This document shows, in pieces, positions 15,904 through 55,804 of a stretch of 64,000 bases of DNA (its first letter is position 1; each line of letters opens with the position of its first letter). The stretch covers positions 93,106-157,105 of the forward strand of contig CBFIET010000122.1 of the NCBI GenBank assembly GCA_965661685.1, in the 5' to 3' direction. Under the pieces are notes generated by a model. That model saw only the letters and a list, made by a program, of their open reading frames with translations. It ran no database searches and was not told the DNA's origin. This DNA comes from Planctomycetota bacterium. Lineage in GTDB: Bacteria > Planctomycetota > UBA8108 > UBA1146. The position numbers were made by a program, and so were the translations under genes.

Positions 15904-16316
15904 GTCGTTCCTTTCCTGGGGTGAAGGGTCTGTTTCCATGGCACTGCAGAGATAGGAGGCAAACGGCGTGCCCGGTCTCCGCACCACTTGAACAGCGCTC
16001 TGGAGGGGGCCCTGAAGAAGATGGAGCGGCGATTCCGTGCCAAAGCGGGACCCACTGTCGAGATCATTGACAATCTCGAGTCGTGCAGATCGATACTATT
16101 GGGGGGTGCCGAAAAGTGGCCTCAGGTGCTACAATATCTATGTCTGACCGTATTTCCGCCCGGAATTGCAGTCGGTATTGAGGAAGAAGAGCCCTGCTTT
16201 TACGCAATACGTCCCCCGTAGAGGCCTATAATGCGTTTCGGCCGTGCGCCTTGCTTTTGCCCCGAGCAACTTCTTCTTCCCGTCCGAAACCTCGAGCATC
16301 GACAGGAGAAATTGCC

Positions 16317-17627
16317 ATGACATTACGCCTCCCCCTGCTGGTCGGCTGGATCACCATCCTCGCCCTCGTCACTTCGACGAGCGTGGCACAGGATTACAAC
16401 TTTCACTTCGACACCACCGCCAGCGGACCTACCGGCTCCGTAATCACCACCCGGGCGCTGATCGACAATCCCGGGGGTCCCCTCGCTGGCTGGTCGATCG
16501 GGATCTGCCACGATGACAACATGGATTTCCTCGAGATCGCCGACGGCAATGCCCCGATGACTGCCAACGCTGGCGGTCCTGCTGACTTCGTCCAGACCAA
16601 TCACTACCCGGGATTCGGAGCCAATCAGGGTGTCGTGGTCAACTTCGTCGGAACAAACGAACTTCCCATCGCCACTGATCATGAAGCCATCACGATGCAG
16701 ACGATGCTGCTTGGACCTGACGACACCACCTCGTCGATGTCCTTCTGCAATGCCGTATTCCCCGGAGAAACGAGCGAATTTGAAAACCTCGCAGTGGCTC
16801 CAGGGGGTATCGCCATCGTTCCCACCATGATGGATGGAATCGTCGAGATCGGCGGATTGCTCCCCTTCGAGTTGAGCGCGGTTCCTTCCGCTCCTTCCGT
16901 CGAGCAGGGCAACTCCATCGACGTCCAGATCATGCTCAATGCACCGGCAGAGAACTACGGTTTCTCGCTGGGATTCGCCCATTCGGGGGCGTCCCTCACC
17001 CTCGTCGGTGCGGATATCGGTAGCGCACTCGCGGTTCTCAACGGTGGCTCCGGTCCGGAATACCTGACCCTGGACCTTGACCCCGAAGGAGCCAACGGCC
17101 TGATCGTCGCCTGCCTCTACTCCGTCTCCTCGCTGCTCGCGCTTCCCGCCGGAAACGGACAGGAACTGGTGGTGGCCCACTACGATGCGCCATCTACCGC
17201 CCCTCTGGGAATCACCGGGCTCAACTTCAGCGAGGACCTGGTGCCACAGTCACCTTCTCCGCCGACCGCGATCGTCATCTCTCTGGGCCAGACCTCCGGC
17301 CCGGTAGTGACCTCGGGAACCAGCATCGAGATCCTCGAAGGAGTGGTTGGAGTTCAGTTCCAGCGTGGCGACTTCGATGGAAGCGGATCCCTCAACCTGG
17401 GTGATCCCGTCAACCTGCTCGGCTACATGTTCAACGGTGGGGCAGCCCCCCTGTGCGAGAAAATCGGCGACATCGACGACAGCGGCAGCATCGTGCTGGG
17501 AGATCCGGTACAGCTGTTGACCTACATGTTCTCCGGTGGTTCTGCTCCGGCAGAACCGTTCGATCAGTGCGGAATCGACCCGACTGAAGACGATCTGACC
17601 TGTGAGGAGTTTGACGCCTGCCCCTGA
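16317..17627 (+). CDS. secreted protein with two cohesin-like modules and a C-terminal type-I dockerin
   Basis: ATG 16317 (MTLRLPLLVGWITILALVTSTSVAQ signal). Segments GWSIGICHDDNMDFLEIADG and NSIDVQIMLNAPAENYGFSLGFAHSGASLTLVGADIG resemble cohesin beta-sandwich signatures. C-terminal DFDGSGSLNLGDPVNLLGYMF + DIDDSGSIVLGDPVQLLTYMF dockerin repeats. Confidence 0.6.
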   Translation: MTLRLPLLVGWITILALVTSTSVAQDYNFHFDTTASGPTGSVITTRALIDNPGGPLAGWSIGICHDDNMDFLEIADGNAPMTANAGGPADFVQTNHYPGFGANQGVVVNFVGTNELPIATDHEAITMQTMLLGPDDTTSSMSFCNAVFPGETSEFENLAVAPGGIAIVPTMMDGIVEIGGLLPFELSAVPSAPSVEQGNSIDVQIMLNAPAENYGFSLGFAHSGASLTLVGADIGSALAVLNGGSGPEYLTLDLDPEGANGLIVACLYSVSSLLALPAGNGQELVVAHYDAPSTAPLGITGLNFSEDLVPQSPSPPTAIVISLGQTSGPVVTSGTSIEILEGVVGVQFQRGDFDGSGSLNLGDPVNLLGYMFNGGAAPLCEKIGDIDDSGSIVLGDPVQLLTYMFSGGSAPAEPFDQCGIDPTEDDLTCEEFDACP

Positions 17628-17668
17628 TCCTCATCGATCGAGGAACGGCAACAGGTTACTTCCCGACA

Positions 17669-18187
17669 ATGCGGCTCACTTCCTTCCCATGGCATCATCC
17701 ACTAAGATGCCGGAAGGAGGTCGAGGCCGTGGTCGAAACCGGTGCCATCGCGATTCGTTATCCACTTGAGAAATCCGCCCCCTCTCATCATGCAGAACCG
17801 CATCATGCAGAACCGCATCATGCAGAACCGCATCATCGAGAGCGGCATCCTTCAGATCCAGCGCCCCAATCACTGCTTGCCGATTCTCCATCTGCACAGA
17901 TTCCGCCGCTGGCAGGGGCGACCGTGACAGACTCCACCTCCGGCCTCAACAGTGGCGAAGCAAGCGACGATCCGGGTGTCATCGTGCTGCGCTGGTCGGT
18001 ACAGCCGGGAGAATCGATCGAGGCCGATCAGGAGTTACTGGTGCTAGCAGTGGGCAGCGAGGTCCAGGTGATCCGAGCGCCGGTTCCAGGTGTCCTCCTC
18101 AATCACTGGACGGAGGAGGGGGATCGACTCGGCCGGGGAGAAACCCTTGGATGGATCCGCCCCAGCTCCTCCGAGGCTGCGACGTAG
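17669..18187 (+). CDS. hypothetical protein with HHAEP tandem repeat and lysine-less biotin/lipoyl-like hybrid-barrel domain
   Basis: HHAEPHHAEPHHAEPHH repeat. C-terminal VIVLRWSVQPGESIEADQELLVLAVGSEVQVIRAPVPGVL resembles a biotinyl/lipoyl-attachment fold but lacks the modifiable Lys. Confidence 0.5.
   Translation: MRLTSFPWHHPLRCRKEVEAVVETGAIAIRYPLEKSAPSHHAEPHHAEPHHAEPHHRERHPSDPAPQSLLADSPSAQIPPLAGATVTDSTSGLNSGEASDDPGVIVLRWSVQPGESIEADQELLVLAVGSEVQVIRAPVPGVLLNHWTEEGDRLGRGETLGWIRPSSSEAAT
17786..17839 (+). repeat. perfect 15-nt tandem repeat (catcatgcagaaccg x3, plus a degenerate 4th unit) inside the CDS
   Basis: Directly visible at 17786-17830. Encodes HHAEP x3. Confidence 0.9.
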
Positions 18188-23214: not shown

Positions 23215-24252
23215 CTAGTAATCGTCGTCGACGGAGTCGAGGACGGAGGAATACTGATCCAGTTTCTCGAGGAATATGGCGGTTCCACGGGCCACGCAGG
23301 TGAGTGGGTCGTCTGCCACCCGCACCGGCAATCCGGTCACCTTCCGGATCGTCTCATCGAGACCGCGCAGTAACACGCCGCCACCACAGAGGACGATTCC
23401 ACGCTCCACCAGATCGGCACACAGTTCGGGGTCAGTCGTTTCAAGTGTCGACTTGATCCCTTCGATGATCTTGTCGACGGGGGGCTGCAGTGCCTCCCGG
23501 ATCTCTTCACTGGTGATTCGTGCACTGCGAGGAAGATTGCCGATGAGATCGCGCCCCTTCACCTCCATCTCGAGTTCCTCTTCGAGTGGGTAGGCGGACC
23601 CGATCCCGATCTTGATCTGCTCCGCAGTCAGCGGTCCAACCAGGATGTTATAGGTGTCCTTCATGTACTTGACGATCGCTTCGTCCATGTCATCTCCGGC
23701 GACGCGCAACGACACGCTGGTCACCACATCTGCCAGGGACAGTACTGCGATTTCTGTGGTTCCACCGCCGACATCCACGACCATGCTTGCGATCGGCTCT
23801 TCGATGGGCAATCCAGCACCGAGACCGGCAGCTCGCGGCTCTTCCACGAGGTAAACCTTGCGAGCACCGGCACGCTCCGCAGAGTTGTAGACGGCACGCT
23901 TCTCCACTGCTGTGATCCCGCTGGGAACAGCGATCACAACACGTGGGCTGAAAAATCTGGATCGGTTTTGCACCCTCGTGATGAAGTACTTGAGCATCGC
24001 CTCGGTGATCTCGAAATCGGCGATGACTCCATCCCGGAGGGGACGGACCGCTTCGATGGAGGTGGGGGTTCTGCCCATCATCTCCTTGGCGACACTGCCG
24101 ACAGCTCTTCCATCGAGAAGTACCTGGTTGGTACCTGCTTTGACCGCCACCACCGATGGCTCGCTGATGACGATTCCTCGCCCACCAACACAAACGAGGG
24201 TGTTGGCAGTTCCAAGATCGATACCAAGATCAGTAGAAAACTTCCCCACCAA
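23215..24252 (-). CDS. mreB: rod shape-determining actin MreB (start likely TTG 24252 or GTG 24249; the ORF to 24423 has no plausible upstream Met)
   Basis: LVGKFSTDLGIDLGTANTLVCVGGRGIVISEPSVVAV... Full-length MreB with all actin-fold motifs. Confidence 0.9.
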   Translation of the reverse strand: MVGKFSTDLGIDLGTANTLVCVGGRGIVISEPSVVAVKAGTNQVLLDGRAVGSVAKEMMGRTPTSIEAVRPLRDGVIADFEITEAMLKYFITRVQNRSRFFSPRVVIAVPSGITAVEKRAVYNSAERAGARKVYLVEEPRAAGLGAGLPIEEPIASMVVDVGGGTTEIAVLSLADVVTSVSLRVAGDDMDEAIVKYMKDTYNILVGPLTAEQIKIGIGSAYPLEEELEMEVKGRDLIGNLPRSARITSEEIREALQPPVDKIIEGIKSTLETTDPELCADLVERGIVLCGGGVLLRGLDETIRKVTGLPVRVADDPLTCVARGTAIFLEKLDQYSSVLDSVDDDY

Positions 24253-24566
24253 GGCCTGTGTGAAATTCTGTGCGATACGGAAAACCAAGATATGATCTCC
24301 TCGTCCGATCCCTGCCGGCACCGTGGTGCTGGCATCGAGATCAGTTTCCCCTTGAGGACTCCTGTCCTCTTTCCCACTTCGAACTCCCGCAAATTCCGGC
24401 AGGCACTCGCACCTGCTTGCCATGATATTGCATCACGGACGGGATTCCCTCACTGCTGCGCCCTGTATCATAAGCAGGAAAATGGCCGGAGGCGAGGGAC
24501 TAACACCGATCCTTGTCGCAGGAAGGAATGCGCTCGACCGCCGATCTCCGATGCGGACAGGCGCAA

Positions 24567-24606
24567 AAAAAGGCCTGCTTTCCCGGGGGAAAGCAGGCCT
24601 TCATCG
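24567..24606 (-). terminator. rho-independent terminator on minus strand (AGGCCTGCTTTCCC stem, GGG loop, then 7 T on minus strand)
   Basis: Plus-strand text gcgcaaaaaaaggcctgctttcccgggggaaagcaggcct. Sits between the small membrane ORF and the mreB 5' region. Confidence 0.5.
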
Positions 24607-24625
24607 ACGGGTCGAGGTTCAGGGA

Positions 24626-24865
24626 CTAGCCCTCGTCAGCCTCCACGTCGCCGAACACCTTATCTGCTTCACGGTTGACCGACTTCAACTGGACGCTTTC
24701 CCAGGAACTGGCACTGGTGGTGGGGGTTTTCCCCGGCAGGGTCAATTCCTTCAGTTTCATCGACAACAGAGTCGAGGCAGCAATCAGACAGACCACCGAG
24801 ATGGCCAGAAGACTGGTTGCCATCGGGCTCGAATCCTTGCGCTCAACAATAGGTTGATCGTACAT
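24626..24865 (-). CDS. possible small single-pass membrane protein (79 aa)
   Basis: MYDQPIVERKDSSPMATSLLAISVVCLIAASTLLSM... Lies in a gap between a real gene and its own intrinsic terminator. No homology recognised. Confidence 0.35.
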   Translation of the reverse strand: MYDQPIVERKDSSPMATSLLAISVVCLIAASTLLSMKLKELTLPGKTPTTSASSWESVQLKSVNREADKVFGDVEADEG

Positions 24866-51894: not shown

Positions 51895-53067
51895 TTGCTG
51901 ACATTCACCATCCGGAGAATGCTCTCGATACCGCCACTGATCCTGGTGGTCTCGATGCTGACCTTCTTGCTGCTCAAAACAGCACCGGGGGATTTCTACA
52001 GCCAGATGGAAGCGGACCACACCCGCTCCCTCACCGAGGTCCTTCGTCAGAAGGAGTCCGCTGGAATCCTGGTACGACTCTCCTCGGTCGAGATGGAACA
52101 GCTCGGTGAGTTCCGCGACGATGGAGCCACCTGGCGATTCCACAACGACGGAGGCGAGACGCCGAACATCATCAAGGATGAGCAGGTGGTCGCCGAACGG
52201 AGCGCTTCGGAATTACAGAACTTCCAGATCGGCGTCACCAAGTACCAGCGTGATGACGAAGGCGTGGTCTACCGCAAGGTCGGCCCGGTGGAAGGTTTCT
52301 TTTCCTGGTTCTTCAACGCCCTCACCGGTGATTTCGGACGCTCCTACAAGTACAACCGTGAGGTCTTCGGGATCATCCAGGAACGCCTCGTCAACACACT
52401 GACCCTGTCCCTTGCTGCGCTGATCATCGCCTACGGTCTGGGCATCCCTCTCGGCGTCTTTGCCGCCGTCAAACCGAACTCCAAACTCGACCACAGCGCC
52501 GGGGTGATCGCCTTCATCGGCCTGTCAGTCCCGACCGTCTTCTCTGCGCTACTGGCCGTGATGTTTGCATCCTATACAGGTCTCTTCCCCATCGGCGAGA
52601 TGCGATCGCTCGACTACAACCAGTTGAGTCCCTGGGGCAAGTTCCTGGAACGCATCCACCACCTGATCCTCCCCTCCCTGGTACTGGGAACTTCTGCCAT
52701 GGCCGGTTACATGCGCCAGGCCCGCGGAAACATGATCGAGGCTCTGGGGCAGGATTACGTGCGCACCGCCAGGGCCAAGGGAGCGTCCCACTTCGACGTG
52801 CTCTTCAAGCACGCGTTCCGCAATGCCGTAAATCCCCTGGTCACCCTCTTCGGCTACTCCCTTGCCAGTCTTCTCAGTGGCAGCCTGCTGGTCGAGATGG
52901 TCTTCAACTGGCCCGGACTGGGGAGGCTGATCTTCGATGCCATCAGCGCCAAGGATGAACCGCTGGTGCTGGCGAGCGTGCTGATCTCCACCTTGCTACT
53001 CGTCTTTGGAAACCTGGTCGCAGACCTCCTGCTCGCCATCGTCGATCCGAGAGTGAGGCTCACCTGA
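51895..53067 (+). CDS. ABC permease (OppB-like) with periplasmic insertion
   Basis: MLTFTIRRMLSIPPLILVVSMLTFLLLKTAPGDFYSQ... C-terminal ...NLVADLLLAIVDPRVRLT. Confidence 0.8.
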   Translation: MLTFTIRRMLSIPPLILVVSMLTFLLLKTAPGDFYSQMEADHTRSLTEVLRQKESAGILVRLSSVEMEQLGEFRDDGATWRFHNDGGETPNIIKDEQVVAERSASELQNFQIGVTKYQRDDEGVVYRKVGPVEGFFSWFFNALTGDFGRSYKYNREVFGIIQERLVNTLTLSLAALIIAYGLGIPLGVFAAVKPNSKLDHSAGVIAFIGLSVPTVFSALLAVMFASYTGLFPIGEMRSLDYNQLSPWGKFLERIHHLILPSLVLGTSAMAGYMRQARGNMIEALGQDYVRTARAKGASHFDVLFKHAFRNAVNPLVTLFGYSLASLLSGSLLVEMVFNWPGLGRLIFDAISAKDEPLVLASVLISTLLLVFGNLVADLLLAIVDPRVRLT

Positions 53068-54368
53068 TGGCTAACGAGCAAGACGTAAAGGGCCTGCCAC
53101 CGCCGAGAGGACCGTGGACGATGCTGTGGCATCGCCTGCGCAAGAATCGCATCGCCATGATCGGTGCAGCGATTCTCGTCATCCTCTACACCCTCAGTTC
53201 CCTCGGTGGATTCATCTCTCCTTACGGAAAGAACGACACCAACAAGTACACCGTCAAGTACGGACCGATGTTGCTGGGCGGATACAGCATCCAGAAAGTC
53301 GAGGAGCTGGTCACCGAAGATGAAAACCTGGAAGAGGTCATCCTCAGCAGGTACGAACGAACCTGGGATTGGTTCAGGGGTGGAGTTCACTTCCACGACT
53401 CGGATGGAAACTTCAGCCTTCGACCTCATGTCCATCCTCTGGTCGAGTACAAATCGTGGGATCAGTACGGAGAATACGAGTACCTGCTCGCCGAGGACCG
53501 TAGTCGTTCGATTCCCGTCAGTTTCTTCGTCACCTCCGAAACTCCTCACGAACTGTTCAGCCTCTGTGGCTTTCTACCGGTGGAGGGGTCCACCCATCTG
53601 ATGGGCCTGGCACTGGAAGACATCCCCCAGGAACCCGACACCCATGCCGGCCTGTTCCTGCTCGGCACCGACATCCTGGGCAGAGATCTGTGGACTCGAA
53701 TCCTCTACGGCGGCCAGGTGTCGCTGTCGGTGGGCCTGATCGGAATCCTCATCAGCATCTCCATCGGCCTCGTCATCGGTGGGGTCGCCGGTTACTTCGG
53801 TGGACAGATCGACTTCTGGCTGATGCGACTGGTGGAACTGTTGCTGGCGATCCCCGGTCTGTATCTGATCCTGACGCTGCGCTACGCCATCCCCGACGAA
53901 CTGAGCCCGCGCCAGACCTACATGATGATCGTGGCGATTCTCGCCATCGTCGGCTGGGCCAGTACCGGCAGGATGATCCGCGGCATGGTGCTGAGTCTTC
54001 GAGAGAGTGAGTACGCCCTGGCAGCGAAGGCACTGGGAGGATCGTCGGCGAGGGTCATCCTCCGACACCTGCTTCCCAACACCGCCTCCATCGTCATCGT
54101 CACCGCCACCCTCTACATTCCCTACTACATCCTCGGCGAGGTGGCTCTCTCCTTCCTTGGATTCGGCATCACCGAGCCCGATTCTTCGTGGGGATTGCTG
54201 CTGAAGGATTGCCAGAACACCGAAGTGCTCAAGTTCAATCCATGGCTGATCACTCCCGGATTCTTCATCTTCATGGCGGTTCTCGCCTACAACTTCCTCG
54301 GAGATGGATTACGAGATGCAGCGGATCCAAGGGCGTTCCTCGGAGTCTCCAAGAAGGAGGGGTCCTGA
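53067..54368 (+). CDS. ABC permease (OppC-like) with N-terminal periplasmic extension
   Basis: 1-nt overlap (TGATG) with the upstream gene. TM1, a ~150-aa extracytoplasmic domain, then the BPD_transp_1 core. Confidence 0.8.
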   Translation: MANEQDVKGLPPPRGPWTMLWHRLRKNRIAMIGAAILVILYTLSSLGGFISPYGKNDTNKYTVKYGPMLLGGYSIQKVEELVTEDENLEEVILSRYERTWDWFRGGVHFHDSDGNFSLRPHVHPLVEYKSWDQYGEYEYLLAEDRSRSIPVSFFVTSETPHELFSLCGFLPVEGSTHLMGLALEDIPQEPDTHAGLFLLGTDILGRDLWTRILYGGQVSLSVGLIGILISISIGLVIGGVAGYFGGQIDFWLMRLVELLLAIPGLYLILTLRYAIPDELSPRQTYMMIVAILAIVGWASTGRMIRGMVLSLRESEYALAAKALGGSSARVILRHLLPNTASIVIVTATLYIPYYILGEVALSFLGFGITEPDSSWGLLLKDCQNTEVLKFNPWLITPGFFIFMAVLAYNFLGDGLRDAADPRAFLGVSKKEGS

Positions 54369-55804
54369 TCCAAGGTCCCCTGCTCCTGACCCTGATCAGC
54401 AGTTTCCTCTTCACTGCGGTAGAAGACCCGTCCCCTCCATCGATCCTTCTCATCGTCGTCGATGATCTCGGCTGGAAGGATCTGGCGGTGACGGGAAGTA
54501 CCTTCTACGAGACTCCCGCCATCGATGCCCTGGCAGCTTCCGGAGTCCGTTTCGATAGAGCCTACGCTGCATGCCCCGTCTGCAGCCCGACCCGTGTCAG
54601 CTTGCAAACCGGCATCCATCCGGCACGCCTCGCCACCACCGACTACTTCGGTGCTCCGGGACCGGCGAGGTGGAAACGAGCGACGACCCACCGCCCTGCA
54701 CCGTATCTCGACCGCCTACCCCTCGAACAACAAACCATCGCAGAACTGCTCGAGCCACACCGATATTCGACCTTCTTCGCCGGCAAGTGGCACCTGGGTC
54801 CGGAAGGATTCTGGCCCGAGGATCAGGGATACCAGCTCAACCGTGGCGGCTGGACACGGGGAGGTCCCTACGGAGGCAAGAAATACTTCTCCCCCTACGG
54901 AAACCCGAGACTGAAGGATGGACCGGAAGGGGAGCATCTCCCCGATCGACTCGCCAGCGAGACGATTCGCTTCATCGAAGAGCATCGTGATCGCCCCTTC
55001 CTTGCCGTTCTCAGCTTCTACTCGGTGCACACCCCACTCATCGCCCGCGACGACCTGACTCGCAAGTACCGCGAAAAGAAGAAGCAGATGGGACTGGAAG
55101 CCAGCTGGGGACGTGAAGGTTCTCGCAAGGTCAGAGAGGTTCAGGAGCACGCGGTGTATGCAGGGATGGTCGAAGCGATGGATTCCGCTGTGGGCCGCGT
55201 TCTCGACGCCCTGCAAAGGCTCGAACTCGATGACAACACCATCGTCATGCTGACCTCCGACAACGGCGGCCTCAGCACCTCCGAAGGACATCCCACCAGC
55301 AACTTGCCACTGCGAGGGGGCAAGGGTTGGATCTACGAGGGAGGGATCCGGGTACCGCTGATGGTGAGGGGTCCTGGGGTCCAGGGAACTGGCCGCCTCA
55401 TCGATCGCCCGGTCCAGAGTACCGACCTTGTCCCGACATTGCTGAACCTTGCAGGGATCCCCGCACCGGCCGACTGGAAGCCCGATGGGCACTCCTTTCA
55501 CCGTTCGCTGGCGGGACTCGAAGAAGAGAATCAACCACCACTCTTCTGGCACTACCCCCACTATGGAAACCAGGGCGGATCCCCCGCCTCGGCAGTGATG
55601 GATGGAGACTGGAAACTGGTCGAACTGCTCGAAACGAAACGGCTCGAACTCTACAACCTCGGTAGCGACCCCGAAGAATCGACGATCCTCAACTCACGCC
55701 ACCCCGAACAGGTGCAACGGCTGAAGAAGTTACTCGATGAGTGGCGAGCCGATGTTGGGGCGAGATGGCCCACACCCACCCCAGAAGAGGGGAAACAGGA
55801 CTAG
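54365..55804 (+). CDS. Cys-type sulfatase (formylglycine-dependent; arylsulfatase family). Start codon unresolved (no ATG/GTG/TTG after the upstream stop)
   Basis: ILLIVVDDLGWKD... and CPVCSPTRVSLQTG (C-x-P-x-R FGly motif). Reading frame is continuous with 54188 and overlaps the permease 3' end. Confidence 0.75.
   Translation: MIQGPLLLTLISSFLFTAVEDPSPPSILLIVVDDLGWKDLAVTGSTFYETPAIDALAASGVRFDRAYAACPVCSPTRVSLQTGIHPARLATTDYFGAPGPARWKRATTHRPAPYLDRLPLEQQTIAELLEPHRYSTFFAGKWHLGPEGFWPEDQGYQLNRGGWTRGGPYGGKKYFSPYGNPRLKDGPEGEHLPDRLASETIRFIEEHRDRPFLAVLSFYSVHTPLIARDDLTRKYREKKKQMGLEASWGREGSRKVREVQEHAVYAGMVEAMDSAVGRVLDALQRLELDDNTIVMLTSDNGGLSTSEGHPTSNLPLRGGKGWIYEGGIRVPLMVRGPGVQGTGRLIDRPVQSTDLVPTLLNLAGIPAPADWKPDGHSFHRSLAGLEEENQPPLFWHYPHYGNQGGSPASAVMDGDWKLVELLETKRLELYNLGSDPEESTILNSRHPEQVQRLKKLLDEWRADVGARWPTPTPEEGKQD

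Follow-up and report, generated by a model that had tools for sequence, protein, structure and literature searches.

In a Planctomycetota bacterium, a sulfatase gene of the Cys type, placed last in an Opp-type ATP-binding cassette (ABC) importer operon, is probably translated from a non-canonical codon overlapping the stop codon of the permease gene before it. The gene lies in the window analysed here, a stretch of 64,000 nucleotides (nt) from contig CBFIET010000122.1 (positions 93,106 to 157,105; assembly GCA_965661685.1). Our reading is that initiation takes place at the junction itself, on CUG at 54365 or on the adjacent AUC at 54368, coupled to termination of the permease. We give this reading a probability of roughly 0.7, judging from sequence comparison. 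It is also the favoured one among the explanations offered by an earlier, sequence-only reading of this DNA, as the CTG stands exactly where orthologous genes carry a TTG start. Established below are the positional homology, the recurrence of CTG in separate lineages, the purifying selection on the sulfatase and the lack of any usable canonical start.

The permease–sulfatase junction and its orthologues

The operon runs in the order SBP_bac_5, OppB, OppC, sulfatase. Its third cistron is an OppC-type ABC permease gene (53067–54368, + strand), identified by the Pfam domains OppC_N and BPD_transp_1 and present in the list of open reading frames (ORFs). The permease ends with TCC (Ser) as its last sense codon and a TGA stop at 54366–54368, where the sequence-only reading had placed it. 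Relative to the permease, the sulfatase is read in the −1 frame. Its proposed initiation codon, CTG (54365–54367, +), overlaps the permease stop as CTGA, in alignment with the TTG start of orthologues. The next codon, ATC (54368–54370, +), is near-cognate and offers an alternative initiation point. The codons GGG GTC CTG had been described as following the permease stop; they are present, but they straddle the stop rather than follow it.

A Shine-Dalgarno (SD)-like AAGGAGG motif (54354–54360, +) lies within the permease coding sequence, where it forms part of the codons K-K-E-G. As previously described, it is spaced 4 nt from the CTG and 7 nt, the better spacing, from the ATC. None of the other overlapped starts inspected in the window has so strong an SD-like motif. 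The remaining starts of the operon also carry SD-like motifs, and stop/start overlaps at other gene junctions in the window take the forms ATGA, GTGA, TTGA and TGATG. Orthologous junctions have weaker motifs (AAGGCGG, AAAGGCC and AGGAAGGAG). Compensation of the CTG by a strong SD was considered and rejected as inconsistent across lineages, the perfect AAGGAGG being found only in the window. The SD (GGAGGGG) can pair with CCCCUGCUCC just downstream of the CTG in a hairpin at 54356–54386. A hairpin sequestering the SD would be in keeping with a requirement that the terminating ribosome unfold it, but its stability showed no excess over shuffled sequences (z = 0.48).

Before the catalytic domain, the sulfatase frame has canonical starts only at GTG 54188, TTG 54209 and ATG 54242, all of them inside the permease gene. 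No ATG, GTG or TTG occurs in the sulfatase frame between 54242 and 54488. The earlier statement that no such codon precedes the hydrophobic core after the permease end therefore holds, the next one being the GTG at 54488–54490 (+), evident from the sequence and from ORF calls. A start at this GTG, which the public gene call of locus L008 uses (438 amino acids), would cost the enzyme strand 1 and its DD motif. The frame had been described as open back to 54188. It is open there, but stop-to-stop it reaches 54011, and 54188 marks only the first canonical start. A scan of the intergenic junction found no promoter- or terminator-like site between the permease and sulfatase genes. In a search aimed at an initiator tRNA variant, no tRNA genes were found in the window.

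Close homologues were obtained by protein search, and their loci by look-ups and collection scans. A scan of metagenomes contributed five syntenic loci (L089–L093); its other 75 were paralogous or non-syntenic sulfatases. The SBP_bac_5–OppB–OppC–sulfatase synteny is shared by 22 loci, L001, L003, L006 and L007 among them. These represent 11 distinct lineages, or 12 with the window included. Downstream of the sulfatase, wherever the contig is long enough, lie convergent acs-like, class IV aminotransferase and DAO genes. The closest relative, L001/L009, has a sulfatase protein 94–95% identical to that of the window.

Comparison of orthologous junctions, which the sequence-only reading had put forward as a check, revealed NTGA at the same position in 12 of the 12 distinct junctions. 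The start codon itself proved variable. Seven lineages have TTG, namely L002, L012, L013, L003/L090 and the three of clade D (L014, L015/L091 and L016/L017/L092/L093), and in these the TTG start overlaps the permease stop by 4 nt as TTGA. Five have CTG: the window with L008, L001 (= L009), L006 (= L011), L007 and L010/L089. A canonical restart codon at the overlap is accordingly absent from the window and four further lineages and present, as TTG, in seven. Since orthologues have TTG at the identical position, the CTG of the window occupies a bona fide start-codon position. An ATG-initiated sulfatase gene standing apart from the permease, named earlier as the outcome that would speak against a non-canonical start, was found in no orthologue; all overlap the permease stop by 4 nt, with TTG or CTG. 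The second sulfatase codon is ATH in all lineages except L013.

Public gene calls follow the state of this codon. For P0002 and P0003, gene callers start at the overlap TTG, with the 4-nt overlap. The CTG-lineage calls (P0001, P0004, P0005 and L008 2080–3396) begin at a downstream GTG or TTG and miss the signal-like segment, and the L008 call additionally lacks the DDLGW motif.

Two features of the TTG lineages deserve mention. Clade D (L014–L017 and L091–L093) reads TTG ATC ATG, with an ATG two codons after the TTG, and either codon may be the real start; gene calls differ accordingly (MIMAPW... or MAPW...). L013 (QNYK01000062.1) is labelled 'Bacillota bacterium', yet it is syntenic with the loci from Planctomycetota metagenome-assembled genomes (MAGs), and its sulfatase is 91% identical; it is probably mislabelled or mis-binned.

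Recurrence of CTG and selection on the sulfatase

In a neighbour-joining tree of the sulfatases, the CTG lineages fall in three separate clades, with at least three independent switches between T and C. Sulfatases of L003 (TTG) and L010 (CTG) are 93% identical. The T/C change at the start is synonymous in the permease, where TCT and TCC both encode the last Ser, so that the putative start codon moves back and forth between UUG and CUG. Across these genes, usage of the TCN codons is TCC 41%, TCG 36%, TCT 15% and TCA 8%. Despite its rarity, TCT is the last sense codon of the permease in three clades, a pattern suggestive of selection for a TTG start.

The full sulfatase coding sequence as proposed (54365–55804, +) comprises 479 codons and a stop. 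Sulfatase ORFs are intact, at 479–487 amino acids, in the 13 completely sequenced loci; L017, with a run of masked N, was left out. Comparison of the window with L001 gave an omega (ratio of nonsynonymous to synonymous rates) of 0.08, from 96 synonymous and 29 nonsynonymous differences. For L006 and L010, omega was 0.10. Codons 2–28 of the window and L001 differ by 9 synonymous and 3 nonsynonymous changes, and codons 22–41 encode identical protein with synonymous differences present. These comparisons show strong purifying selection on the CTG-lineage sulfatase.

Matches to Pfam and PDB place the protein among the Cys-type S1 sulfatases. The Pfam Sulfatase domain (PF00884) was matched at 7.5e-54 over profile positions 1–301 of 301, together with SGSH_C. 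Among solved structures in the PDB, the closest are 6UST (E = 2e-122) and 9FO1 (S1_16; E = 3.5e-110). The alignment begins at residue 25 of the CTG-initiated protein (PSILLIVVDDLGW...), and the preceding residues therefore form an N-terminal appendage. A formylglycine motif had been recognized from the sequence alone. It is the C-S-P-T-R at 54581–54595 (+), conserved in all 14 orthologous loci, and with the Pfam match it bears out the assignment to the Cys type. Among the approximately 40 ORFs of the window, neither a formylglycine-generating enzyme (FGE) gene nor an anSME gene was found, there being no match to an FGE-sulfatase or radical-SAM (S-adenosylmethionine) domain, a result that covers the window only and is uninformative for the whole genome.

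The VVDDLGW motif occupies residues 31–37 counted from the CTG, and aligns with FMDDMGW of 6UST. Its DD pair (residues 33–34; 54461–54466, +) presumably provides metal ligands, as is established for S1 sulfatases. The motif is part of the product only if translation begins upstream of 54461.

The N-terminal segment, (M/L)IQGPLLLTLISSFLFTAV (54365–54421, +), resembles a signal or membrane anchor, as judged from its hydrophobicity and coding constraint. All residues before position 25, (L/M)IQGPLLLTLISSFLFTAVEDPS, comprise a hydrophobic core without a positively charged n-region. Its best 10-residue stretch has a Kyte-Doolittle mean of 2.4 in the window, 2.4–2.8 across CTG lineages and 2.5–2.8 across TTG lineages. 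The core score of each lineage falls within the top 1–2% of stop-free 22-codon windows drawn from the six frames of the analysed stretch, and that of the window within the top 2%. Although the sequence of the segment has diverged strongly between clades, CTG and TTG lineages retain the core to the same degree. More distant family members have ordinary signal peptides of about 25–30 residues at the same place (for example P0017). Purifying selection and the retained hydrophobic core together argue that the region from the NTG onward is translated in the CTG lineages.

Initiation at the junction and the alternatives

In the mechanism that we propose, a ribosome terminating on the permease UGA would remain on the mRNA, retained with the help of the SD-like AAGGAGG. 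It would then re-initiate one base back on CUG 54365 with formylmethionyl-tRNA (fMet-tRNA), or possibly on the neighbouring AUC 54368 instead. Like GUG and UUG, CUG departs from a full match to the initiator anticodon only in its first base. The product would begin fMet-Ile-Gln-Gly-Pro-Leu-Leu-Leu..., and a hydrophobic stretch of some 20 residues, acting as export signal or anchor, would precede the S1 sulfatase domain. TTGA would represent the ancestral or an alternative state in sister lineages, and CUG would probably lower the ratio of sulfatase to permease. Both the decoding of CUG or AUC as an initiator and the coupling of initiation to termination are what we infer at this junction.

Several considerations weigh against this reading. 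CUG and AUC initiate at about 1–2% of the AUG level in E. coli, and CTG is annotated as a rare bacterial start (bioRxiv 10.1101/063800). CUG initiation complexes are less stable (PMC11497404), and mycobacteria rarely use CUG as a start (PMC11260477). With CUG a poor start or non-start in these organisms, sulfatase expression could be very low. Because CUG is weak in E. coli and rarely used in mycobacteria, low expression would indeed be expected unless coupling relaxes codon selection, and such relaxation is itself speculative. The spacer between SD and CTG is short (4 nt) and the AUC is better spaced, so that the exact codon may be either of the two. ATG 54242 is formally available in the window. 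Sec signals typically have a positive n-region, which is missing from the N-terminal segment. ATG and GTG could be reached at the overlap by the synonymous codons TCA and TCG, but were never seen, though TCG is common; their absence is unexplained unless weak initiation is favoured. Finally, the support is comparative and the organisms are uncultured MAGs.

More tentatively, re-initiation at NUGA overlaps in this planctomycete lineage may be largely insensitive to the first base of the restart codon, with CUG roughly equivalent to UUG and the two interchanging neutrally. A radical variant of this idea, graded with it as possible but rather doubtful, would have part of the product made as a permease–sulfatase fusion through a frame change at the overlap. 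If first-base insensitivity were true, start-codon proofreading would be relaxed in coupled re-initiation, whether by 70S or by retained 30S ribosomes.

Initiation far upstream, within the permease gene, is unlikely. A sulfatase started at ATG 54242 (or at TTG 54209 or GTG 54188) would carry an extension of 41–59 residues before its hydrophobic core, and from the ATG the out-of-frame overlap would span 127 nt, the length that the sequence-only reading had given. The frame, open to 54011, does hold all three canonical codons, and several orthologues have ATG or GTG at the corresponding position, −123. Yet codons at −123 are a by-product of the conserved Pro-Trp codons (CCN TGG) of the permease, which read CCA TGG at the ATG of the window (54242–54244, +), and no SD-like motif precedes that ATG. 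The frame is moreover closed by a stop 39–48 nt upstream of the CTG, with no canonical start in between, in L001/L009, L007 and L010/L089; in L001/L009, the closest relative of the window, this is a TGA 48 nt upstream. The synonymous substitution rate (dS) of the permease is 0.365 over its last 41 codons and 0.233 elsewhere; it is not lower over the overlap, so there is no sign of dual-coding constraint. With the upstream frame stopped in three CTG lineages, ATG 54242 was rejected as a conserved start, and the long overlap put forward earlier does not stand as a conserved mechanism.

A fusion of permease and sulfatase, produced by −1 ribosomal frameshifting or by stop suppression with a frame change near the permease end, is a slightly poorer candidate and quite improbable. 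The hydrophobic segment would then be a seventh transmembrane helix taking the sulfatase to the periplasm, and no initiation codon would be needed. The segment has no positive n-region of its own, whereas the last permease residues are KK or RK. Every lineage keeps the −1 frame open over at least the 39 nt that precede the NTG, and the classic slippery A AAA AAG is found in register in L003 and L010. A frameshift-fusion product has also been discussed for the AUGA overlap of uPPE2-PPE2 in M. tuberculosis (PMC11260477). The slippery heptamer is, however, unconserved: outside the L003/L010 group, to which A AAA AAG is confined, the sequence is C AAG AAG G in the window and C AGG AAG G in clade D. 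The local fold (z = 0.48) gives no sign of significant downstream structure, and frameshifting does not predict a canonical TTG at a 4-nt overlap in 7 of 12 lineages, with the rare TCT enriched.

Loss of the start codon is very unlikely to account for the CTG state. On this account, the T-to-C change silenced the sulfatase, or left it only as N-terminally truncated cytoplasmic forms initiated further downstream, in a gene undergoing decay. Model bacteria do initiate very weakly at CUG, and L001, L006 and L007 have downstream GTG or TTG codons that gene callers choose. Against this, the window offers no canonical start between the junction and the DD motif, residues encoded by codons 22–41 are unchanged between the window and L001 despite synonymous differences, and the hydrophobic core persists in all four divergent CTG clades. 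Omega values of 0.08–0.10 between CTG-lineage pairs, together with intact ORFs, led us to reject a pseudogene.

An assembly or sequencing error (indel or wrong base) hiding a normal start, another earlier suggestion, has only the missing start codon itself in its favour and can be set aside as extremely improbable, because an independent Logan assembly (L008, run ERR15116726; 99.96% identical over 4,700 nt) reproduces the same CTGA with 0 gaps, and four other lineages from different samples agree in CTGA and in frame relationship.

Neighbouring genes, known systems and significance

Between 36620 and 54368, four ABC importer modules follow one another with alternating orientation; each is made up of an SBP_bac_5 binding protein and OppB-like and OppC-like permeases. 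The sulfatase is attached only to the last of them, and no ATPase gene was seen anywhere in the window. At 55801–55804, the 3′ end of the sulfatase gene shares 4 nt with that of the convergent acetyl-CoA-synthetase-like gene, as in L002 and L003.

A second CTGA junction occurs at 17624–17627, where the stop of ORF 16182–17627 overlaps a CTG in the frame of ORF 17615–18187. The latter has its first ATG at 17669, and this junction, with neither an SD-like motif nor a Pfam match, could be due to chance. The hypothetical protein encoded at 17669–18187 contains a His-rich repeat (HHAEP three times) and likewise has no Pfam match. At 23374–24678 (+), 435 codons are open with a first canonical start at 23968; the translation is not protein-like, and this is probably a shadow ORF.

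The junction resembles AUGA-type termination-reinitiation (Huber et al. 2019, PMC6728339), in which re-initiation at overlapping stop and start codons has been experimentally validated. Both involve co-directional genes, a 4-nt stop/start overlap and an SD inside the upstream ORF. They differ in the restart codon, which here would be CUG; 'CUG' or 'CTG' appears nowhere in the text of that survey, and coupling is here proposed from sequence.

CUG is also among the near-cognate starts CUG, AUU, AUC and AUA of translation table 11 (Hecht et al., bioRxiv 10.1101/063800), with a single first-position mismatch to the initiator anticodon. In the present case, unlike those, the support is comparative, consisting of positional homology with UUG, at least three switches and purifying selection, and the host is an uncultured planctomycete. 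With the S1_16-like sulfatases 6UST (N-acetylgalactosamine-6-sulfate sulfatase) and 9FO1 (kappa-carrageenan sulfatase), the protein shares the Sulfatase domain, CSPTR and DDLGW, and it aligns with 6UST over the full length. It differs from them in that its gene closes an Opp-type ABC importer operon and in its signal without a charged n-region.

Near-cognate initiation at a coupled junction is a rare but known phenomenon, of which we consider this gene pair a new and comparatively well-supported natural candidate. If this is correct, such initiation would have recurred in evolution where two genes are translationally coupled, in a phylum with little-studied translation signals. The junction is easily cloned and suits asking whether termination-reinitiation relaxes start-codon selection. 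Standard gene callers shorten the CTG-lineage sulfatases, with loss of the export signal and, in the L008 call, of the metal-binding residues as well. Such shortened calls would distort predictions of localisation and activity in the sulfatase-rich Planctomycetota.

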